Source of the DNA: Patescibacteria group bacterium
GTDB lineage: Bacteria > Patescibacteriota > Patescibacteriia > Patescibacteriales > JBAZCA01
Assembly: GCA_041661405.1 (NCBI GenBank)
Contig: JBAZUL010000001.1
Span: 28,403 to 92,402 of the forward strand
Length of the DNA stretch: 64,000 bases
Direction of reading: 5' to 3'
Below the pieces are notes generated by a model. It saw only the letters and a program-made list of their open reading frames with translations, made no database searches and had not been told where the DNA came from. This document shows, one piece after another, positions 7,701 to 57,757 of the stretch. Positions within the stretch are counted from its first letter, which is position 1. Every line of letters begins with the position of its first letter. The position numbers were made by a program, and so were the translations under genes.

Positions 7701-7837
7701 TCTACCGATTTTTCAAAAGTTTTCGCCCGATTCCAAAATTCCAAGACTTCCTCTTCCATTTTCGGAAATGGACTTATTCCGCGAAGCCCTGCCGAGGCGG
7801 GATTGACTGAGGCTTTTTTATCTTTTTCATTAGTCAT
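4772..7837 (-). CDS. ileS: Isoleucine--tRNA ligase
   Basis: 1021 aa with HIGH-type motif PHYGHIVA and KMSKS-type KMSKR. Class I editing-type synthetase architecture with CxxC pairs. Confidence 0.97.
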   Translation of the reverse strand: MTNEKDKKASVNPASAGLRGISPFPKMEEEVLEFWNRAKTFEKSVEKPAGEKPKGDYVFYDGPPFATGTPHYGHIVASVMKDAVPRFWTMRGFRVERKWGWDCHGLPIENIVEKEMGSKSKKDIEEMGVAAFNEKCRSKVLAYVDEWKKVIPRLGRWADMENSYKTMDLPFMESVWSVFKELWDRGLVYEDYRSMHICPRCETTLSQQEVAEGYKMIKDLTATVKFELEDEPGTYVLAWTTTPWTLIGNAALAVGEDIEYVKIRVQPEAEFTESEGNDDFYAKEKNSLFITSKDSLEKTEHGYRFKNQTNKPDARFWSIEDNIKGKELVGKKYKPLFPYYAENEKLENRENGWKIYPGDFVTTEDGTGVVHIAPAFGEDDRNLGKKFNLPFIQHVRMDGSIKDEAGDFSGMNVKPKDDVLATDVEIIKYLAKKNLLFSKEKFEHSYPHCWRCETPLINYATTSWFVKVLAIKDKALKLAEEINWSPGHIKEGRFGNWLSGARDWSISRQRFWASVIPIWKCEKCEELKVIGSVKELEELSGQKITDIHKHIVDEITFSCEKCKGTMKRIPDVLDTWFDSGSMPYAQEHYPFENKKKFEKNFPAQFIAEGVDQTRAWFYYLHIIATAIKEKPAFKNVIVNGIVLAEDGKKMSKRLQNYPDPTLIFEKYGADALRYYLLTSPVMLAENLNFFEKGVADSLRKINMLVWNVYKFYEMFASSASKPHPDPLISKEREKNILDQWILARLNELIKEVTKAMENYNLPQATRPIADFVDDLSTWYIRRSRDRFKADDEKDKEAALNTTRFALLQLSKVMAPFTPFIAEQIWQKVTGNDFKDEEKSVHLEGWPEAGRVDSQIIAKMEDVRNIVELALAKRDEAGIKVRQPLNQLLIINYKLSIDHEFLELVKDEVNVKEVVFKDDKGNMEVELDTEITPELKAEGVKREIVRLVNGLRKDAGLTIKDRIEIYYETSGEEVKKAIENYKDGILKDTLADSLAEGKIEGALAEKNVKVEGAEVWLGVARR
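5151..5185. repeat. In-frame heptad array (ATTGATA ATTTATA ATTAATA ATTAATA ATTGATT) inside ileS
   Basis: Five 7-nt units on the plus strand. They encode ..NQLLIINYKLSID.. in IleRS. Confidence 0.7.
5641..5676 (+). repeat. GC palindrome + GGGGTGAGG element (type 3), in-frame inside ileS
   Basis: CCCTCTCcttactaatGAGAGGG followed by TCGGGGTGAGGTTT. Encodes KPHPDPLISKEREK in IleRS. Confidence 0.65.
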
Positions 7838-7868: not shown

Positions 7869-7897
7869 ATTCTATTCTAAAATTAGCTGAATGTCAA
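7869..7897 (-). promoter_or_regulatory. Predicted sigma70-type promoter of ileS
   Basis: The minus strand reads TTGACA - 17 nt - TAGAAT, about 30 nt upstream of the ATG at 7837. Confidence 0.6.
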
Positions 7898-7963
7898 AAC
7901 GCCGAGCGTGTGAGCAAGGCATCTCGAACCCCGCATTTTGCGGGGAAGGGATCTCGCGCATAC
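7892..7963 (+). repeat. Promoter-associated structured repeat, type 1, copy R1
   Basis: TGTCAAAACGCCGAGCGTGTGAGCAAGGCATCTCGAA-CCCCGCattttGCGGGG-AAGGGATCTCGCGCATACG. The left terminus is the -35 of the ileS promoter. Confidence 0.7.
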
Positions 7964-8199: not shown

Positions 8200-8312
8200 G
8201 TCATCCTGAACGGAGCGGAGCCCGCCCGAACGACGTTCAGTCGGGCGGGGATCTCGCATTCAAAACAACTAACCCGAGATTCTTCACTCCACTATGTTTC
8301 GTTCAGAATGAC
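8200..8312. repeat. Terminal-inverted-repeat hairpin element, type 2, copy 1
   Basis: GTCATCCTGAACG...CGTTCAGAATGAC termini. Internal hairpins CCCGCCCGA..TCGGGCGGG and ATCTCG..CGAGAT. Lies between a predicted promoter (8041) and the lipoprotein gene. Confidence 0.7.
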
Positions 8313-9231: not shown

Positions 9232-9660
9232 TTATTTTATTATATACGTCGCCACGAAAGCCCAAAGGGCGAACGCGCTGATAATAATAATCAGCCCGAT
9301 TATCGCCTGGCGGATGGTGGCCAGGGACTTTTTTACTTTTTCCTCTTCGCCGTGGGCGGACATGTATGTATAACCGGCGTAAATTATGAAAATCAAAAAC
9401 ATAACTCCGAGGACTGACAAAAACCCGCCGATAGCCGAGCCAAAAATTTTTCTTAAAGTGGTGGCGTCCGTATTTTCGGCATAACCGGCGCCCTCCGCCA
9501 CCAGCTTCATTTTTTCCGTTAAAGCATTTTTTGTCCCAGTATTTCCGGTTTGCGCCAAGGTTAAATTTGGCAAAACAGCCAGACTAAAAAATACCAAACT
9601 CATAAAGAATATCCGCATCGCGTAAATTTTTCCTTTATCAAAAATTAAATTCATAATCAC
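9232..9660 (-). CDS. TrbC/VirB2-like small membrane protein, paralog 2 of 6
   Basis: Same architecture, with loop AGYTYMSAHGEEEKVKKSLATIRQAIIGLIIII. The start could instead be the Met at 9618 (MRIFFMSLVFF signal peptide). Confidence 0.75.
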   Translation of the reverse strand: MIMNLIFDKGKIYAMRIFFMSLVFFSLAVLPNLTLAQTGNTGTKNALTEKMKLVAEGAGYAENTDATTLRKIFGSAIGGFLSVLGVMFLIFIIYAGYTYMSAHGEEEKVKKSLATIRQAIIGLIIIISAFALWAFVATYIIK

Positions 9661-10058
9661 TTTAATAAAAACGATAAAGCGCCGGTCGCAAAAATGGAAA
9701 GCGCGTAAGCCGCCACTACGATTAACAGTCCGATGGTCGCATTCCTTAATATGCTCTGAGCCTTTTTAACTCTTTCTTCATTGCCCATGGACTGCATCCA
9801 CTCAAACCCGCCGTAGATAATAAGGCATAAAAATATAATACCCAGCGCGTAAAGCATAAGCTGGACTATCTGGCCGATGTATTTATATATCGCGTCCGGT
9901 TCAGAATCCTCTTTGTAACCGGCGCCTTGATTAAAAGTTTTTAAATTCTTGTCAAAAGCGTCATTTAGGGCTTGCGCCTGAAGCGGCCGGATATTGACGG
10001 CGGCGAGTGCCGTTGATCCTATAACCAATATAAAAAAAAGATGTAGGAGATATTTCAT
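9657..10058 (-). CDS. TrbC/VirB2-like small membrane protein, paralog 3 of 6
   Basis: Signal peptide MKYLLHLFFILVIGSTALA and loop GGFEWMQSMGNEERVKKAQSILRNATIGLLIVV. Its stop overlaps the paralog 2 start. Confidence 0.75.
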   Translation of the reverse strand: MKYLLHLFFILVIGSTALAAVNIRPLQAQALNDAFDKNLKTFNQGAGYKEDSEPDAIYKYIGQIVQLMLYALGIIFLCLIIYGGFEWMQSMGNEERVKKAQSILRNATIGLLIVVAAYALSIFATGALSFLLK

Positions 10059-26326: not shown

Positions 26327-26377
26327 CTCCCCCCGCCCGCGACGGTCAGGGGCGGGAGAGGGGTTGGGGGTGAGGGT
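26327..26377 (+). repeat. GC palindrome + GGGGTGAGG element (type 3), intergenic copy between folD and glyA
   Basis: CCCCGCCCgcgacggtcaGGGGCGGG, then AGAGGGGTTGGGGGTGAGGGTC. Confidence 0.65.
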
Positions 26378-27718: not shown

Positions 27719-27747
27719 ATCCTAAGCCAATCACGGCCATTTGTCAA
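27719..27747 (-). promoter_or_regulatory. Predicted promoter of glyA
   Basis: The minus strand reads TTGACA - 17 nt - TAGGAT. Confidence 0.55.
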
Positions 27748-27806
27748 AATGATTTGCGTGCGAGCAAATCATCCCGTAGCCGAAGGCGTGCGGGAACTCT
27801 CGCACA
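27742..27806 (+). repeat. Promoter-associated structured repeat, type 1, copy R2
   Basis: TGTCAAAATGATTTGCGTGCGAGCAAATCATCCCGTAGCCgaaGGCGTGCGGGAACTCTCGCACA. The left terminus is the -35 of the glyA promoter. Confidence 0.7.
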
Positions 27807-27872: not shown

Positions 27873-28460
27873 TTACAATTTCCTGTAAGTCATCTTCTTC
27901 AGCCCTTTCCACCAATCGGTAAATTTGGTTTTTTTCATCTCCCTAATAAGCATTTTAGCTGATTTGGTCTCCAGAGCTTTTTCCACGTTTTTAATCCAGT
28001 CCTCAGTGAATTTAAAACCTACATCCGCGTATTCTTTGGCCTGGAACGCGGTTTCCAGCCAGTCGGCGTCTTTGGCGATTATGCCTTCTTCCGTATTCCG
28101 GTTTTCAAATTCATTAAAATACTCTTTCCATCTTTTCTCAATTTCGCCGCCAAGATTTTTTAACTGATCACTAAAAGCATGGGCTTCGGCCGTCTTAACG
28201 GAAAAATAGCGGGCCGAAACTTTATTCTGGTCTCCGACCCGGGCTTCGCCGTTGTCATGTATTAAAATCATGGCCGCCACTTTTTCCGGATTAGCGTTGC
28301 CTTCCATGACCGCGAGAATATAGCCGATCTGGGCGGCGCGCATTACATGCTCGGCGACTGTATCAGGATTTTTAACGCCAGCCAGCTGGAAGCCCGAATG
28401 CCTCTGGCGCTTTAACTGGCTCATTTCAAAAATGTGGTTAACAATATTTTTGACATTCAT
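27873..28460 (-). CDS. HD domain phosphohydrolase (YfbR-like 5'-nucleotidase family)
   Basis: 195 aa. VAEHVMRAA ... LIHDNGEARVGD gives the H...HD...D metal-binding pattern. Confidence 0.7.
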   Translation of the reverse strand: MNVKNIVNHIFEMSQLKRQRHSGFQLAGVKNPDTVAEHVMRAAQIGYILAVMEGNANPEKVAAMILIHDNGEARVGDQNKVSARYFSVKTAEAHAFSDQLKNLGGEIEKRWKEYFNEFENRNTEEGIIAKDADWLETAFQAKEYADVGFKFTEDWIKNVEKALETKSAKMLIREMKKTKFTDWWKGLKKMTYRKL

Positions 28461-30234: not shown

Positions 30235-30263
30235 ATTCTCTTATAAAAAACAGGTTAAGTCAA
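30235..30263 (-). promoter_or_regulatory. Predicted promoter of the ferredoxin gene
   Basis: The minus strand reads TTGACT - 17 nt - GAGAAT. Confidence 0.5.
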
Positions 30264-30321
30264 ACTGATTCGCGCGCAAGTAAATCATCCTGAGCCAAAA
30301 AACAAAGGATCTGCTTTGACA
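30259..30321 (+). repeat. Degenerate type 1 repeat with both termini (GTCAAA ... TTTGACA)
   Basis: GTCAAACTGATTCGCGCGCAAGTAAATCATCCTGAGCC...GGATCTGCTTTGACA. The termini coincide with the -35 boxes of the divergent ferredoxin and proS promoters. Confidence 0.55.
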
Positions 30322-30344
30322 ATTCGCGTTTTTTCCAATAACAT
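30316..30344 (+). promoter_or_regulatory. Predicted promoter of proS-proC-proA
   Basis: TTGACA - 17 nt - TAACAT, with TAGGAT immediately after as an alternative -10. Confidence 0.5.
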
Positions 30345-34857: not shown

Positions 34858-34917
34858 ACATTTAAGGCGCCCGTTTTAAGACGCCAGAAGCTATTTTTGT
34901 GGGTTTAAGAGGGCTCG

Positions 34918-34976
34918 CCCCGCACGCCTATCCCGCCCCGGCGGGACGGGATGCCTCGCTCACACGCTCGGTAAAC
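34918..34976 (-). repeat. Promoter-associated structured repeat, type 1, copy in reverse orientation (no promoter seen)
   Basis: The minus strand reads TTTACCGAGCGTGTGAGCGAGGCATCCCG-hairpin-..GCGTGCGGGG, matching the left arm of copies at 7892, 37838 and 40132. Confidence 0.6.
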
Positions 34977-34990
34977 CATGCGGACAATTG

Positions 34991-35059
34991 TGGGCGGCAT
35001 AGGATTCGAACCTATTACCTCGTCGATGTCAATCCCGAGGACTCGGGACTCTAACCAAC
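34991..35059 (-). pseudogene. tRNA-Val-like fragment X, 3' portion (T arm and acceptor 3' strand)
   Basis: The minus strand reads GTTGGTTAGAGTCCCGAGTCCTCGGGATTGACATCGACGAGGTAATAGGTTCGAATCCTATGCCGCCCA. The acceptor 3' strand is complementary to GGGCGGC at 36405-36411. No canonical anticodon stem can be drawn. Confidence 0.55.
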
Positions 35060-35129
35060 GTTTACGCATCATCTGAAGTTTTCATCCCGCTTAGTAAGAT
35101 GAATTTAATTATTCGTCCTCGATAACAAA

Positions 35130-35978
35130 TTAATCGTATTTAATATATAGTCCAACGCCAACTTCTTTTAAATTTGTTACTTTTGATAAAGCGATTTTTG
35201 AATCTAAATCAACGCAATGACAAGCATGTAATTTAGACGTTTTCAGTTCTTGGAAATAATTGAGAGTGCCTGAGAGTTGTTTTTCTGAGGGTTGCATTAA
35301 ATGAAAACCACCAATAACGTCTAAAACTTTTTCTTCACCACAAACCTTTTTGGCGTATTCAACAATATTACAGATACCTGAATGAGAGCAACCAGTTATG
35401 ATAATAAGACCCTCTTTACCTTTGTAAGCTAGTGCAGTGTCATCAAGCAAATAGTCAGGTTCCATCTTCCCATCAATATGAATTTCTCCAACAGGTGATT
35501 TGTTTTCAAAGTCATTGCTTCTTTCTATTTCACCAAGAAAAACAAGTTTATCTGTAAGCCAAAAAGGTTCTTTGTGTGATTCAATTTGAAAATGCTTATC
35601 TAATTTTGATTGCGGAATAGTACAACCTATCTCTTTTAGACCATCAGCTGACCTTGTTTCAAAAATCGCTGGGTGAGCAATTAGTTTAGGATCTTTGTGG
35701 GGGATAGACTCAATCTTTGCCTCAGTATATAGCTTTAAAAGCGGATCAAGCCCCCAAGTGTGATCCATATGTGCATGGGAGAGAACGATAAAATCGCTTT
35801 GTAGCAAATTTAAATTAAGTTTTTGCGCATTAATAATAAAGGCGTTGGAATAACCAACATCGAATAATATTTGCCTAGATTCATCTTCTATTAAATAAGA
35901 TACTCCCGGTTCACCAAGAAAGTATCTATCTATTAAAGTATTGTTGTCGATTAATACTGTTAGCTTCATAAATTTCAC
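35130..35978 (-). CDS. MBL-fold metallo-hydrolase (COG1237-like)
   Basis: 282 aa with HAHMDHTWG (HxHxDH) and later His/Asp/Cys ligand positions. AT-rich. Confidence 0.8.
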   Translation of the reverse strand: MKFMKLTVLIDNNTLIDRYFLGEPGVSYLIEDESRQILFDVGYSNAFIINAQKLNLNLLQSDFIVLSHAHMDHTWGLDPLLKLYTEAKIESIPHKDPKLIAHPAIFETRSADGLKEIGCTIPQSKLDKHFQIESHKEPFWLTDKLVFLGEIERSNDFENKSPVGEIHIDGKMEPDYLLDDTALAYKGKEGLIIITGCSHSGICNIVEYAKKVCGEEKVLDVIGGFHLMQPSEKQLSGTLNYFQELKTSKLHACHCVDLDSKIALSKVTNLKEVGVGLYIKYD

Positions 35979-36011
35979 TTAGAAAAATGGATATAATTTC
36001 GTATAACTGAA

Positions 36012-36260
36012 CTATATTCTGCAAAGATTTTTATAAAATAGTTTGCTTTTTTGCGCTTTCAAAAATTTTTCTCTTCTCATAGCATTTCCTCTATCTTTAA
36101 ATTTTTCTTCATAAACCTTAATCCATTCGCCATCATATTTTGCCGTATATGTTGATAAACCCGAATTGTGCTCAATCAGCCTCTTTTTAACATCATATGT
36201 TTGACCAATATAAAATTTGTCATGCTTTTTATTATGTATTAAATAGACATAATAATTCAT
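36012..36260 (-). CDS. Small GIY-YIG nuclease family protein
   Basis: 82 aa. YYVYLI...KFYIGQT...RLIEHN...GEW...R(E)KFLK matches the GIY-YIG core. The ATG (36260-36258) lies one nucleotide after the tRNA-Val discriminator base. Confidence 0.85.
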   Translation of the reverse strand: MNYYVYLIHNKKHDKFYIGQTYDVKKRLIEHNSGLSTYTAKYDGEWIKVYEEKFKDRGNAMRREKFLKAQKSKLFYKNLCRI

Positions 36261-36261
36261 G

Positions 36262-36335
36262 TGGGTTTAAGAGGGCTCGAACCTCTGACCTCCACGATGT
36301 CAACGTGGCGCTCTAACCAACTGAGCTATAAACCC
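36262..36335 (-). tRNA. tRNA-Val (anticodon GAC)
   Basis: Manual cloverleaf: GGGTTTA TA GCTC AGTTGGTTA GAGC G CCACG TTGACAT CGTGG AGGTC AGAGG TTCGAGC CCTCT TAAACCC A. 74 nt, no encoded CCA. Confidence 0.9.
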
Positions 36336-36355
36336 AAAAAAATATTTAATTTATT

Positions 36356-36411
36356 CCTCCACGATGTCAATCCCGAGGACTCGGGACTCTAACCAACTGA
36401 GCTAGCCGCCC
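36356..36411 (-). pseudogene. tRNA-Val-like fragment X, 5' portion with a palindrome in place of the anticodon-stem 5' strand
   Basis: GGGCGGC TA GCTC AGTTGGTTA GAG then the palindrome TCCCGAGTCCTCGGGA, then TTGACATCGTGGAGG. It shares a 36-nt repeat (36362-36397) with 35024-35059. Confidence 0.55.
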
Positions 36412-36432
36412 AATACGATTATAAACTCAATG

Positions 36433-36506
36433 TGCGCCCAGATGGACTTGAACCATCGACCCCGGCTTTATAAGAGCCGTGCTCTAACCAGCTGAGCTAT
36501 GGGCGC
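36433..36506 (-). tRNA. tRNA-Ile (anticodon UAU)
   Basis: Manual cloverleaf: GCGCCCA TA GCTC AGCTGGTTA GAGC A CGGCT CTTATAA AGCCG GGGTC GATGG TTCAAGT CCATC TGGGCGC A. 74 nt. Confidence 0.85.
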
Positions 36507-36520
36507 AATGTTTTATCTTT

Positions 36521-36583
36521 CTTTTTTCAGAGGCGTGCTCCCTGCCTGCCGGCAGGCAGGTAACCAGCTGAGCTATGGGCGCC
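36521..36583 (-). pseudogene. Partial duplicate of the tRNA-Ile 5' half interrupted by a 20-nt perfect palindrome
   Basis: GCGCCCATAGCTCAGCTGGTTA + CCTGCCTGCCGGCAGGCAGG + GAGCACGCCTCTGAAAAAAG. It has no T arm and no acceptor 3' strand. Confidence 0.6.
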
Positions 36584-36635
36584 ATATATCAAATCCACCT
36601 CCACAAACGAACTTATATTCAGGTTAACACTAATA

Positions 36636-37781
36636 TTATACCTTTTCAAGAATAACTTTCAATTTCTCTTCCAGCATCCCGATTATCCGCTTTTCGCCGT
36701 CAGCAAAGGGCTCGTTCAAATCAAACTTGACGAGAGTTTTTCCTCCGGCCGGATTGTATTCCGCCGCGAGTTCCATGGAATTAAGGTTCCTGGCGGCGTG
36801 CAAAAAGACCCGGGTTTTTCCTTCTTCATTCTCAAAAATCAGGGCAATGACTTTTGCGGCCGGAACGTTCGTTATCATCTCTTCTATCACTTCTTCAAGG
36901 TCGGCTTCAACCGATCCGGTTTTTAAAAAATCGCTTTGCCCGAGAACTGACCAGATAAGCCGGTCGTTTAACGAACTTTCCAGGCGGGCGAGCACCCGGC
37001 CCCAAAGTTTTAACACGTTAAAAGAACGGGAGCGGAAAAGCTGGTTAATAATTTCGTCCTTCCGGGCGCCGGAAGCTATCAGGTCCGAAGCCGTTTCCAG
37101 CACCCGCGGAGTGATGGTTCTGGATCTAAAATTCCTTGTGCCCGAAATTATGCCTGCCAAAAGGCAAGTGGCGATATCCTCGTCCATGAGACCCTCGCCG
37201 AGCGTTTTAAAAAACGGAAAAAGAATTTCCGCGAGCGAAACCGCCGTGAGCTCTATTAAGTTAACCTGGCCGAAACTCTCGTTGTCCGGGCCGTTATCAA
37301 TATTTATGAGCGGGGTCTTATAAAAAAAGTCCGGGTTGTTCTCAAAAATCCGTCCAAGCGATTCAAGATCCGGAGCGCCGACCGCGACAACGAGGTCATA
37401 CTTATATCCGCAGGCGCAGGAAGTAACTTCCCGGCCGGTAAAAACTCCTTCTTTGGGGGTGATGATAAAATCCAGCCGTCCGTCTTCAATTACGTATTTA
37501 ACCTGATCAACTTTGGTTTGGGAAATATCAAGCGATACGATTAAATTCTGCAAACCCTCAACCGCTTCTTTAATTTCCATAAAACCGGGCAAAAAACTCA
37601 GGTCTTTTCTGCCGACGGCACCCTCTATAATCAGGTCCGCGCTTTTGCCCATCTTTTTTAAATACAAAAAAAGAGCCAGGGCGTTAGCCGGAGCGTCTTT
37701 ATTATCATCCCGCGGGGCGACAATGAGAATATTTTCGGATTTTTTAATCTGTTCTTCGGCTTGCTTTCTTTCTGATAACAT
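36636..37781 (-). CDS. DHH/DHHA1 family (NrnA-like) protein with degenerate catalytic motifs
   Basis: 381 aa with an NrnA-like layout. The position expected for DHH reads DNG (LINIDNGPDNESFG), and motif I reads APRDDNKDAPANALAL. Confidence 0.6.
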   Translation of the reverse strand: MLSERKQAEEQIKKSENILIVAPRDDNKDAPANALALFLYLKKMGKSADLIIEGAVGRKDLSFLPGFMEIKEAVEGLQNLIVSLDISQTKVDQVKYVIEDGRLDFIITPKEGVFTGREVTSCACGYKYDLVVAVGAPDLESLGRIFENNPDFFYKTPLINIDNGPDNESFGQVNLIELTAVSLAEILFPFFKTLGEGLMDEDIATCLLAGIISGTRNFRSRTITPRVLETASDLIASGARKDEIINQLFRSRSFNVLKLWGRVLARLESSLNDRLIWSVLGQSDFLKTGSVEADLEEVIEEMITNVPAAKVIALIFENEEGKTRVFLHAARNLNSMELAAEYNPAGGKTLVKFDLNEPFADGEKRIIGMLEEKLKVILEKV

Positions 37782-37814: not shown

Positions 37815-37843
37815 AATATATACAAAAACCGACTGACTGTCAA
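37815..37843 (-). promoter_or_regulatory. Predicted promoter of the DHH-like gene
   Basis: The minus strand reads TTGACA - 17 nt - TATATT. Confidence 0.6.
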
Positions 37844-37900
37844 ACGCCGAGCGTGTGAGCAAGGCGTCCCGCAGCCAAAGGCATGCGGGATCTCTGCGCA
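37838..37900 (+). repeat. Promoter-associated structured repeat, type 1, copy R4
   Basis: TGTCAAACGCCGAGCGTGTGAGCAAGGCGTCCCGCAGCCaaaGGCATGCGGGATCTCTGCGCA. The left terminus is the -35 of the promoter for the 36636..37781 gene. Confidence 0.7.
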
Positions 37901-39771: not shown

Positions 39772-40062
39772 TCAATTTGCTAACTTCAGCATGGTTTCAT
39801 AATTATCTTCCTCCGCTTTTTTTACCCGATGCTCATACCCGCACTTCTCGCATTTATAGACTATTCTCGTCTCCCCATGTTTCAATTCCAGCCCCATAGG
39901 TTTCATAAGCCCCCGGCAATCGGCCACCCGGTCGCCCGGGTTTACGTCAACATGCCGCGACCAAAGGCAAACCGGGCAATGGTCTGTATAGCCGTCGCCC
40001 TTCACCTTTGCCCCGCAGTTTCCGCACGCAAAGTCTTCAATAGTTCTTTGAAACTTTCGCAT
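39772..40062 (-). CDS. RNHCP domain-containing small zinc-ribbon protein
   Basis: 96 aa. FACGNCG ... HCPVCLWSRHVD ... CRGLMKP ... YKCEKCG. Contains the HCP motif and four Cys pairs. Confidence 0.65.
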   Translation of the reverse strand: MRKFQRTIEDFACGNCGAKVKGDGYTDHCPVCLWSRHVDVNPGDRVADCRGLMKPMGLELKHGETRIVYKCEKCGYEHRVKKAEEDNYETMLKLAN

Positions 40063-40108: not shown

Positions 40109-40137
40109 ATTATATCATGCTAATCTAAGCATGTAAA
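40109..40137 (-). promoter_or_regulatory. Predicted promoter of the RNHCP-uvrB unit
   Basis: The minus strand reads TTTACA - 17 nt - TATAAT. Confidence 0.6.
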
Positions 40138-40185
40138 TGCCGAGCGTGCGAGCGAGGCATCCCGCCGGCGAAGCTGGCGGGATCT
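40132..40185 (+). repeat. Promoter-associated structured repeat, type 1, copy R5
   Basis: TGTAAATGCCGAGCGTGCGAGCGAGGCATCCCGCCggcgaagctGGCGGGATCT. The left terminus is the -35 (TTTACA) of the RNHCP gene promoter. The right end lies 6 nt before tRNA-Val(CAC). Confidence 0.7.
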
Positions 40186-40191
40186 AACATA

Positions 40192-40265
40192 GGACAATTA
40201 GCTCAGTTGGTTAGAGCGCACGCTTCACACGCGTGAGGTCGGAGGTTCGAGCCCTCCATTGTCCA
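40192..40265 (+). tRNA. tRNA-Val (anticodon CAC)
   Basis: GGACAAT TA GCTC AGTTGGTTA GAGC G CACGC TTCACAC GCGTG AGGTC GGAGG TTCGAGC CCTCC ATTGTCC A. 74 nt. Confidence 0.9.
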
Positions 40266-40269
40266 CTTT

Positions 40270-42095: not shown

Positions 42096-42136
42096 CCCGA
42101 CAAGAAAACCAATTTCTTCTCGGGGTTTTCTTTTGT
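42096..42136 (+). terminator. Terminator after the secreted-protein gene
   Basis: CCCCGACAAGAAA-acca-ATTTCTTCTCGGGG followed by TTTTCTTTTG. Confidence 0.7.
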
Positions 42137-42244
42137 CTGAACCACTGATTCTCACTGATTTACCTGATTACATGGATAGCATTTAGTTTGTTTATTTTAA
42201 ATCAGTGAAATCATCATAATCACGTGAAAATCAGTGGTTCAGAC
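42135..42244. repeat. Nested inverted repeat (GTCTGAACCACTGATT ... AATCAGTGGTTCAGAC)
   Basis: Perfect 16-bp outer arms. Inner arms are CTCACTGATTT / AAATCAGTGAAA. The element is about 110 nt. Confidence 0.7.
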
Positions 42245-42281
42245 AATCTCAGCGAAATCAACAGCTCAGACAATAAATAAA

Positions 42282-54061: not shown

Positions 54062-54117
54062 TTGACAAGTAATTTGCATGTGAGCAAATTATCCCGCAGC
54101 CGCAGGCGTGCGGGATC
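54062..54117 (+). repeat. Promoter-associated structured repeat, type 1, copy R6
   Basis: TTGACAAGTAATTTGCATGTGAGCAAATTATCCCGCAGCCgcaGGCGTGCGGGATCC. Confidence 0.6.
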
Positions 54118-54123
54118 CATTCT

Positions 54124-54194
54124 GGTGAGCAAATTATCCCGAATCCCGCATTTGCGGGGGAAAAATCTCTCGCTCGCGCGCTCGGCGTTTGACT
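54124..54194 (+). repeat. Type 1 repeat copy R7 carrying the opposite terminus
   Basis: GGTGAGCAAATTATCCCGAATCCCGCAtttGCGGGGGAAAAATCTCTCGCTCGCGCGCTCGGCGTTTGACT. The right terminus is the -35 of the infB promoter. Confidence 0.65.
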
Positions 54195-57709: not shown

Positions 57710-57757
57710 CTTCCTGTGGGCTAGACCCTGCAAATGCGGGGAACCTCCACCTTCCTG
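57710..57757 (-). pseudogene. Partial duplicate of the tRNA-Leu 3' end with a GC hairpin replacing T loop/stem sequence
   Basis: The minus strand reads GTGGAGGTTC-CCCGCATTTGCAGGG-TCTAGCCCACAGGAAGG. The real tRNA-Leu end reads GTGGAGGTTCGAGTCCTCTCTCGCCCACAGGAAGG. Confidence 0.55.

Follow-up and report, generated by a model that had tools for sequence, protein, structure and literature searches.

The DNA considered here, a 64-kb segment of a Patescibacteria (Candidate Phyla Radiation, CPR) genome with 44% GC, which we call the window and to which all window counts refer, holds nine copies of a short two-hairpin repeat. Every one of them is intergenic, and their neighbours are ileS, glyA, a gene for a 61-aa ferredoxin, proS, an RNHCP-domain gene, infB, uvrB, an HD-domain gene, proB and the RNase Y gene (Table 1; copies in the window are numbered c1 to c9, and loci elsewhere carry L numbers). 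Eight copies had been listed in a preliminary description of this DNA, and a covariance model (R1, built on alignment A2, which comprises five copies of the window and five of relatives, and run with filters off) recovered precisely these eight from the 64 kb, with the rest at noise level; a repeat search alone already clusters five of them. The ninth, c9, is partial. We consider it probable, at roughly 60%, that they represent an undescribed family of short (~48-63 nt), non-autonomous palindromic repeats in some Patescibacteria that resembles the repetitive extragenic palindromes (REPs).

The element proper consists of two directly abutting hairpins, HP1 and HP2 (20 nt and ~24-32 nt respectively), followed by a short tail, and the layout given in the preliminary description is correct. 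HP1 has a covarying stem of 7-9 bp closed by a conserved hexaloop, R-Y-G-Y-G-A, and comes in two fully compensated versions, GCCGAGC/GC(A/G)AGGC and (G/T)(A)ATTTGC/GCAAAT(T)(C/A), the arms switching among copies from the former to GATTTGC/GCAAATC and TAATTTGC/GCAAATTA. In the GC-type version two consecutive mismatches, G·A/A·G (or G·A/A·A), interrupt the stem: GCC-GA-GC ... GC-GA-GGC. HP2, (A/G)TCCCGCAGCC-loop-GGC(A)TGCGGGA(T), is a GC-rich stem of ~10 bp in which one base bulges out and whose loop of three or four bases is of the G..A type, and the tail GATCTC(T)CGCRCA is confined to copies of the window genome. For covariation, 16 distinct copies, drawn from the window as well as from relatives, were assessed: 82.7% of the cells are paired, vs a maximum of 51% when the partners are slid, both-sided changes occur in seven pairs, and none of 500 shuffles reached the observed covariation score. 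Both hairpins covary, and the compensatory pair noted at 40161-40181 is indeed an A-U to C-G change.

The two strands are not equivalent. In 13 of 15 copies the better fold is that of the forward strand (sums of -366 vs -311 kcal/mol); the HP2 loops of this strand, read from the sequences, are of the G..A type in 11 of ~16 copies (GAA, GCA, GAAA, GUGA, GUCA, GUAAA); a GUGA tetraloop is found in HP1 of one decayed copy; and wobble pairs fall mostly, though not exclusively, on the forward strand. Hairpins of RNA and of single-stranded DNA alike gain stability from GNRA loops, GNA triloops and sheared tandem G·A pairs, and because of this the asymmetry indicates the strand but not the chemistry. 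A double-stranded operator for a transcription factor, including one with a CRP-like TGTGA half-site, was rejected because the stem arms change with complementarity kept and the direct repeat CGAGCG-N2-CGAGCG is lost in the AT-type copies. The tails CUCGCGC, CUCGCAC and CUC(U)GCGC (7953-7960, 27796-27805 and 37892-37900) are complementary to the HP1 loop region, GUGUGAG or GUGCGAG, and by pairing with it they can build a different helix around HP2, seen in window-genome copies only; in c1 and c2 the minimum-free-energy structure is the one with this helix. A tRNA-like minihelix, with the HP1 loop and the tail forming an acceptor stem, was also considered and set aside, as only three related copies support it and relatives lack it. 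As to a possible origin of the tails from tRNA 3' ends, those of c2 and c8 have CTCTCGC, a short stretch, in common with tRNA-Leu.

Promoter-like sites of the sigma-70 type adjoin most copies. At six of the eight HP1 ends in the window a TTGACA-like hexamer (TTGACA, TTGACT or TTTACA) lies 0-3 nt away and is followed by a 17-nt spacer and a TAnnnT hexamer, as the preliminary description had observed; a random position and strand yields such a site at a rate of 0.0063, and the element-adjacent sites rank among the best-scoring promoter-like matches in 26-45 kb. The names given there to the genes concerned stand for ileS, glyA, ferredoxin, proS, RNHCP and infB, the 'DHH-like' label corresponding to a sub-threshold match only (E = 0.0037, 18 bits vs a cutoff of 28.1). 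Further sites of this kind come from relatives (Table 1), and at all 11 promoter-adjacent loci the -35 is faced by HP1, never HP2, across a linker of 0-3 nt. Genes downstream are often translation-related (ileS, proS, infB, the rplC operon, rpsL). The outward hexamer of c7 is TTGTCA, with no convincing promoter, and TGTCAAA is missing from four copies away from promoters: c4 (after a tRNA fragment), L001 (after tRNA-Arg), L004b (in a spacer) and L007/L018/L081 (inside pilD).

To whom the -35 hexamer belongs can be read from three genes at which relatives lack the element. In the closest relative, L020, the ileS promoter TTTTGACA-ATTAGCTAATTTTACAA-TAGTAT, with a 17-nt spacer, is identical to that of the window at 29 of 33 nt, and an ordinary terminator hairpin occupies the element's position, its T-tract running into TTGACA; the element is absent throughout the 16.6 kb of L020. 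Upstream of rplC, four related genomes have in common a conserved block (..AATTATCGCAACTCCC), a promoter (TTGAAA or TTGCAA, ..GGGAAAGTGC, TATAAT) and a long leader, likewise conserved. The stretch that separates the block from the -35 is taken up by the element in L077/L013 and L015/L080, by 25 unrelated bases in L075 and by only 7 in L078. Since the empty L075 is nearer to L015 than the filled L077 is (88% vs 81% identity in L3), the presence of the element at rplC does not track relatedness. At rpsL the L077 element abuts TTGACT-17-TAAATT, and this promoter and its leader recur in L075 and L080 with the element absent, the distance from the upstream stop codon to the -35 being 23 nt in L080. 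In all three comparisons the homology between filled and empty sites begins within ~2 nt of the -35 hexamer. No target-site duplication flanks the element at rplC (L077 and L015 vs L075 and L078) or at the L004b site. Given that the same -35, spacer and -10 stand at the empty ileS, rplC and rpsL sites, the TTTGAC hexamer is a resident -35; the contrary claim, that GTCAAA/TTTGAC is the element's terminus, also conflicts with its absence from the non-promoter copies and with the 0-3 nt linker. Moreover, the promoters being present without the element in relatives, the latter is best read as a REP-like or MITE-like passenger (MITE, miniature inverted-repeat transposable element) and not a promoter-carrying module.

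The leader between the rplC promoter and rplC, ~110 nt long in these genomes, ends in a hairpin with a T-run (GCTGGTTTTTTGTGTTAAGACCGGCTTTTTT) that has an attenuator-like look and recalls the S10-operon leader; it has no match in Rfam, and the rpsJ-rplC gap of the four genomes spans 260-460 nt and includes a promoter.

Table 1. Positions of the repeat copies, adjoining promoters and further features (window coordinates unless a locus is named; bits are covariance-model scores)
Feature	Position	Strand	Details
c1	7900..7960	+	54.4 bits, match listed at 7892; also from sequence and fold
c1 HP1	7901-7920	+	GCCGAGC-GTGTGA-GCAAGGC
c1 HP2	7921-7952	+	outer stem ATCTC/GGGAT around hairpin CCCCGCA-TTT-TGCGGGG
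c1 tail	7953-7960	+	CTCGCGCA
ileS resident promoter	7869..7897	-	TTGACA (7897-7892), 17 nt, TAGAAT; ileS ATG at 7837; the 'terminus' of the preliminary description
c2	27750..27806	+	74.5 bits, match at 27742; 66 nt past stop of HD-domain gene (27873-28460, -); HP1 AT-type TGATTTGC-GTGCGA-GCAAATCA; HP2 with GAA loop and U·G pair; tail CTCTCGCACA
glyA promoter	27719..27747	-	TTGACA-17-TAGGAT; abuts c2
c3, degenerate	30259..30321	+	16.2 bits, E = 6e-5, match at 30258; HP1 GATTCGC-GCGCAA-GTAAATC; HP2 decayed
Ferredoxin promoter	30263-30235	-	TTGACT-17-GAGAAT; flanks c3
proS promoter	30316-30344	+	TTGACA-17-TAACAT; flanks c3
c4	34918..34973	-	36 bits (34930-34973); HP1 and HP2 with nested extra hairpin; no adjacent promoter
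tRNA-Val(GAC) 3'-end copy	34898..34917	-	CGAGCCCTCTTAAACCCACA; exact, 20 nt, directly after c4
c5, best window copy	37845..37900	+	76.6 bits, match at 37838; 19 nt past uvrB stop (37920); tail CTCTGCGCA
Promoter of 381-aa gene (36636-37781, -)	37815..37843	-	TTGACA-17-TATATT; 1 nt from c5 HP1 base
c6	40138..40185	+	68.9 bits, match at 40132; HP2 CCCGCC/GGCGGG compensatory change and G·U pair
RNHCP gene promoter (gene 39772-40062, -)	40109..40137	-	TTTACA-17-TATAAT; 0 nt from c6 HP1 base
tRNA-Val(CAC)	40192-40266	+	6 nt after end of c6
c7	54070..54117	+	69.9 bits, match at 54063; HP1 AT-type TAATTTGC-ATGTGA-GCAAATTA; HP2 loop GCA
c8, chimera	54124..54194	mixed	16.5 bits (54131-54194, -)
infB promoter	54189-54194 (-35)		TTGACT, 17 nt, TAAACT; abutted by c8 HP1 (-)
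c9, partial	8200..8262	+	HP2-like hairpin CCCGCCCGA...TCGGGCGGG, then the same GATCTCGCA tail; HP1 degenerate
Promoter beside L008			TTGCGT-17-TATAAT
Promoter beside L003, L013			TTGAAT or TTGAAA, 16 nt, TATAAT; before rplC operon
Promoter beside L005			TTTACT-17-TAAGGT
Promoter beside L002			TTGACA-17-TAGCAT
Promoter beside L077b			TTGACT-17-TAAATT; before rpsL
Island-like arrangement	34898-36412	-	beside tRNA genes
tRNA 5' fragment	36412-36357	-	GGGCGGC...
tRNA-Val(GAC) gene	36261-36335	-	
GIY-YIG protein gene	36012-36260	-	82 aa
Metallo-beta-lactamase-fold protein gene	35130-35978	-	282 aa
tRNA 3' fragment	35063-34989	-	
42-nt direct repeat	35018-35059, 36356-36397		95% identical
Truncated tRNA 5' part and hairpin	36530-36585	-	GGCGCCCATAGCTCAGCTGGTTA, then CCTGCCTGCCGGCAGGCAGG
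tRNA-Ile(UAU)	36432-36506		
Inverted repeat	42139-42270		CTGAACCACTGATT ... AATCAGTGGTTCAG, ~130 nt
Solo hairpins	~57720-57750		CCCCGCATTTGC(A/G)GGG
Solo hairpin, L075	9020-9045		CCCCGCATTTGC(A/G)GGG
GC-rich hairpin	26330-26365		CCCCCCGCCCGCGACGGTCAGGGGCGGGAGAGGGG
tRNA-Arg(GCG) unit, L001	5654-5880		
rplC leader, L075	~9295-9410		also in L078, L080
rplC leader, L077	~9725-9840		

Several copies are partial, tandem or nested (c8, c1, c4, the tandem pair of L001 and an extra partial copy in L015). c8, earlier listed as one copy, is a chimera: a partial copy in + orientation (HP1 3' arm GTGAGCAAATTATCCCG, hairpin CCCGCATTTGCGGG, tail ATCTCTCGC) is fused to an HP1 in - orientation (54187-54168). 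A second small hairpin is nested inside HP2 of both c1 and c4. Solo hairpins, the same as the one nested in c1 and c8, lie between tRNA-Leu and tRNA-Val(TAC) in the window and, in the relative L075, directly past the rpsJ stop, which suggests that the HP2-type hairpin is able to exist as its own unit. Just 3' of the glyA stop stands another GC-rich hairpin, of a sequence unrelated to the element.

Comparison with a strain (L004) that is ~95% identical to the window over clpP, tRNA-Val and c6 gives evidence of turnover: L004 has an extra copy, L004b, that is missing from the window at 42134-42279. Its homology with the window stops right beside the HP2 end, with no TGTCAAA on the HP1 side, where the flank is not alignable; together with the HP1-side flanks of the non-promoter copies, this break suggests a minimal unit of ~48 nt. 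In the same spacer the window has a different small inverted repeat, and small insertions seem to concentrate at this hot spot. The highest-scoring copy found (81 bits, L018/L081) lies in frame inside the prepilin peptidase gene pilD, where it encodes ~20 residues in a loop of variable length among homologues. No copies occur in 62.7 kb around ileS in L020, L073 and L074, which include the closest relative with its 80% identical ileS. Presence/absence polymorphism is evident, and the element is patchy among Patescibacteria and polymorphic between ~95% identical strains. An identical 25-nt HP1 core nevertheless recurs in several different Patescibacteria metagenome-assembled genomes (MAGs) and metagenomes.

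In the genome collection the repeat core matches solely Patescibacteria MAGs, and in the protein collection the closest homologue of the window's IleS, at 80% identity, is followed by Parcubacteria/Falkowbacteria-type sequences. Searches of Rfam 15 at the gathering threshold and at E <= 5 returned no match for the element sites, only tRNAs and noise, in keeping with the preliminary description, which had not recognised it as a described family; nor did we find an earlier description of small palindromic repeats in Patescibacteria in the literature searched. The 52 pattern matches in viral contigs are all short, local chance ones, and the full element is absent there; the metagenome matches L009-L011, L014, L016, L017 and L019 were discarded as chance matches within GC-rich coding DNA. 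A Pfam scan of the ~60 open reading frames (ORFs) in these 64 kb of genome found no transposase, integrase, RAYT (REP-associated tyrosine transposase) or Y1_Tnp match. Terminal inverted repeats are lacking: inverting the 5' end, YGCCGAGCG, does not yield the 3' end, GCGGGRWC, and the apparent ones in c3 and c8 are a second promoter's -35 box or a second inverted partial copy. The 5' flanks (among them TCAAACG, GTAAATG, TCAATAGCG, GCAAAATG, GAAAATTG, AGAAGCG, GGTTTA, GATTCCG) contain no fixed motif or distance.

With respect to genes, the element shows a consistent placement. Seven loci fall between co-directional gene pairs (c2, c5, L002, L005, L008, L013/L015 and L077b); at six of these it lies 4-66 nt past the upstream stop, and at L002 the 3' flank of the model overlaps the stop by 8 nt. 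It is reverse to local transcription at nine of nine protein-gene loci (these seven, the pilD copy and L004b), and forward relative to a tRNA only in the three tRNA-linked copies c4, c6 and L001. Given this position in the 3' region of the upstream gene, upstream mRNAs are expected to carry the reverse-strand double hairpin in their 3' end, as they do with REPs, which likewise occur mostly in uni-directional or convergent intergenic gaps near the upstream 3' end, sometimes intragenically in frame, and often as dimers or clusters (PMC3733652). A canonical Rho-independent terminator was rejected on account of the short U-run and the outcome of a terminator scan: on the reverse strand HP1' is followed by only 2-4 U (tails include UUUGACAG, UUUACAUG and CUUGAAUU), whereas the definition of such a terminator asks for 5 U or more among the 8 nt that directly follow a GC-rich stem-loop on the transcribed strand, and the scan, which covered 26-45 kb, called none of the element sites. 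Ordinary strong terminators are present elsewhere in the window genome. A replication origin near 58 kb was likewise dismissed as the cause of the orientation: a DnaA-box cluster is absent, and the skew tracks the gene strand.

The tRNA-linked copies lie in varied surroundings. c4 is situated 13 nt past a tRNA 3' fragment, and c6, upstream of tRNA-Val(CAC), is kept in L004. The region around c4 has an island-like arrangement in which tRNA-Val(GAC), the GIY-YIG gene, the metallo-beta-lactamase-fold gene, the tRNA 3' fragment, c4 and the copy of the tRNA-Val(GAC) 3' end follow one another, bracketed by a matching tRNA 5' fragment and the 42-nt direct repeat. Joining the two fragments as a split tRNA (36412/35063) gave no credible tRNA in ARAGORN. 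Nearby, a tRNA-Ile whose anticodon, UAU, is unusual has just upstream of it the truncated 5' part of a tRNA, followed by a perfect hairpin. In L001, tRNA-Arg(GCG), two tandem element copies, a 14-nt repeat of that tRNA's 3' end (CTCACGAGAGCACA) and a terminator succeed one another, with a large serine recombinase gene ~0.8 kb upstream; both here and at c4 the sequence past HP2 starts with CGAG.

Among known systems, the REP/BIME/REPIN families (BIME, bacterial interspersed mosaic element; REPIN, REP doublet forming a hairpin) come closest. Like them, the element is a short, GC-rich, imperfect palindrome in many copies, its structure held by compensatory change; it is mostly intergenic and, in co-directional pairs, lies close to where the upstream ORF ends, with an occasional in-frame intragenic copy; it forms dimers, clusters and partial copies, has a patchy phylogeny, and lacks terminal inverted repeats and target-site duplications (PMC3733652, PMC3337134). 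Its 8-9 intergenic copies in 64 kb are dispersed and extragenic as in the definition of a REP. Unlike a REP, the unit comprises two different abutting hairpins rather than one, abuts -35 hexamers in fixed orientation, and resides in a CPR host with very short spacers. The REP tag GTAG or CGTC (PMC3733652) is not in the expected place, the bases before HP1 being variable and those before HP2 GGC(A/G); CGTC is seen only as GGCGTCCCG in some copies, as part of a stem or junction, and no RAYT gene was seen among the ~60 ORFs of these 64 kb.

Other families are more distant. Rickettsia palindromic elements (RPEs) are also palindromes in a reduced genome, situated between genes as well as, like the copy that adds ~20 residues to PilD, in frame within coding sequences, but they measure ~100-150 bp and are frequently intragenic, whereas our element has one intragenic copy and is mostly promoter-adjacent. 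HUH elements and the MITEs derived from IS200/IS605 (palindrome-associated transposable elements, PATEs) also lack terminal inverted repeats and target-site duplications and have two different subterminal hairpins, and the strand-asymmetric hairpin quality suggests recognition as single-stranded DNA as in these; in contrast to PATEs, the element is shorter than is typical, has no conserved target tetranucleotide at a fixed distance (its 5' flanks vary and the linker is 0-3 nt), and no TnpA or TnpB is nearby. The Correia/NEMIS repeats of Neisseria, promoter-bearing MITEs of the type behind the earlier idea of outward promoters, are likewise small, dispersed, gene-adjacent and able to affect transcription, but their terminal inverted repeats measure 26 bp, they duplicate a TA target and they bring promoter boxes of their own, whereas here the -35 is host-owned. 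Finally, an intrinsic terminator fused to the next promoter, as at ileS of L020, similarly places a hairpin directly before the -35, within the 3' region of the gene ahead; the element differs in its short U-run, in mismatches on the transcribed strand, in escaping the terminator scan, and in being present also where nothing needs terminating.

If the element is a REP-like passenger, its units would be gained and lost on short evolutionary time scales and would pile up in the few dispensable bases between the end of a transcription unit and the -35 of the next promoter, with HP1 toward the promoter, whose TTGACA-like hexamer would be neither carried by the element nor dependent on it. Spread may be due to a trans-acting RAYT/HUH-like enzyme reading the forward single-strand hairpins or, alternatively, to microhomology-mediated template switching at the hairpins; the latter would account for the partial, tandem and chimeric copies, the CGAG junctions at tRNA 3' ends (c4, L001) and the TTGA(C/A) junction. 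The host might benefit from a 3'-end stabiliser or a weak terminator or insulator before the next promoter, and such a secondary role is plausible. Several points weigh against this interpretation. The sample is small, at ~18 independent loci, with the source genome represented by the 64-kb window. A mobilising enzyme was not found among the ~60 window ORFs, no insertion with clean flanks and a defined target is on record, and the REP hallmarks, namely the GTAG or CGTC tag and a flanked RAYT gene, were not found in the window. The identity of the 25-nt HP1 core across apparently distant genomes could reflect purifying selection instead of recent transfer. Lastly, the junction within ~2 nt of the -35 in all three comparisons and the strict orientation are more precise than passive tolerance predicts.

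Of the competing explanations, a functional module upstream of promoters fares best, although we regard it as unlikely. Here the double hairpin would have been recruited as a terminator or insulator (with HP2', HP1' and the T-rich start of the -35 in the reverse-strand RNA) or as a binding platform at ~-38 to -90 tuning strong housekeeping promoters, much as the preliminary description had offered a conserved upstream regulatory or insulator structure as its second option. The proximity and fixed orientation of HP1 at 11 of 11 loci, the canonical terminator in the same position at ileS of L020, the placement at seven loci where the upstream transcript must end or read through, the many translation-related genes downstream and the HP1 core identical across genomes are what such a module leads one to expect. 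Attachment to promoters thus stands, but conservation does not: orthologous sites are not conserved, presence is sporadic and strain-polymorphic, and the same promoters manage without the element in close relatives. Against termination there are the 2-4 U past HP1', the failure of any site to pass the scan and the ordinary strong terminators available elsewhere in the genome; the G..A loops, tandem G·A mismatches and most wobbles lie on the forward strand, which is not the one transcribed from the upstream genes; and copies within a coding sequence and beside tRNAs serve no promoter.

Slightly less likely again is a mobile hairpin cassette homing one-way to the upstream edge of sigma-70 -35 hexamers, through a promoter-targeting enzyme or TTGAC-microhomology copy-choice, and afterwards maybe acting as a portable insulator. 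Placement 0-3 nt from the -35 despite 7-23 nt being free, along with the fixed orientation, keeps targeting to, or selection at, the -35 edge viable.

It is improbable that the element is a forward-strand small RNA or a tRNA leader or trailer, transcribed away from the neighbouring promoter or with tRNAs and acting as a structured RNA. Such an RNA would fit the forward-strand bias in folding and loops, the position of c6, 6 nt before tRNA-Val(CAC) and overlapped by a plausible forward promoter (TTGAAA-18-TAATCT), the location of c4 and L001 directly after tRNA sequences, the L001 element preceding the terminator of the tRNA-Arg unit, and the complementarity of tail and HP1 loop (GYGYGAG/CUCRCRC), the alternative helix being the best fold in c1 and c2. 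However, a consistent forward promoter was not found upstream of c1, c2 and c5, at all nine protein-gene loci local transcription runs antisense to the forward strand, Rfam yields no match, only window-genome copies have the tail, with the loop-tail pairing backed by three informative copies only, and GNA triloops and tandem G·A pairs are no less typical of stable DNA hairpins than of RNA. Insertion sequence (IS) and MITE ends with outward -35 boxes are known, for instance in Correia elements, and the 6/8 window copies ending at a -35 with its spacer and -10, together with the duplication of a partial inverted HP1 along with TTTGACT in c8, recall them, but a promoter-delivering MITE whose outward TTGACA end creates a promoter at each landing site, the first option of the preliminary description, is already largely refuted and is the least probable reading: three orthologous promoters have the same -35, spacer and -10 with the element absent, relatives' hexamers (TTGAAT, TTGCGT, TTTACT, linker 0-3 nt) behave as independent promoters, four non-promoter copies lack the hexamer, the strain-polymorphic L004b breaks beside HP2 with an unalignable HP1 side devoid of TGTCAAA, and neither terminal inverted repeats nor target duplication are seen.

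Patescibacteria have streamlined genomes of roughly 1 Mb with hardly any spare intergenic DNA. Within them the family shows a niche for passengers, the handful of bases that separate a stop codon from the following -35, and the element is usable as a marker of strain-level turnover. It also carries a warning for annotation, in that the common TTGACA should not be taken as part of the repeat or as the sign of a promoter-bearing transposon. If placement at the -35 edge were targeted or functional, a mobile hairpin element would be tied to promoter architecture in an unusual way.

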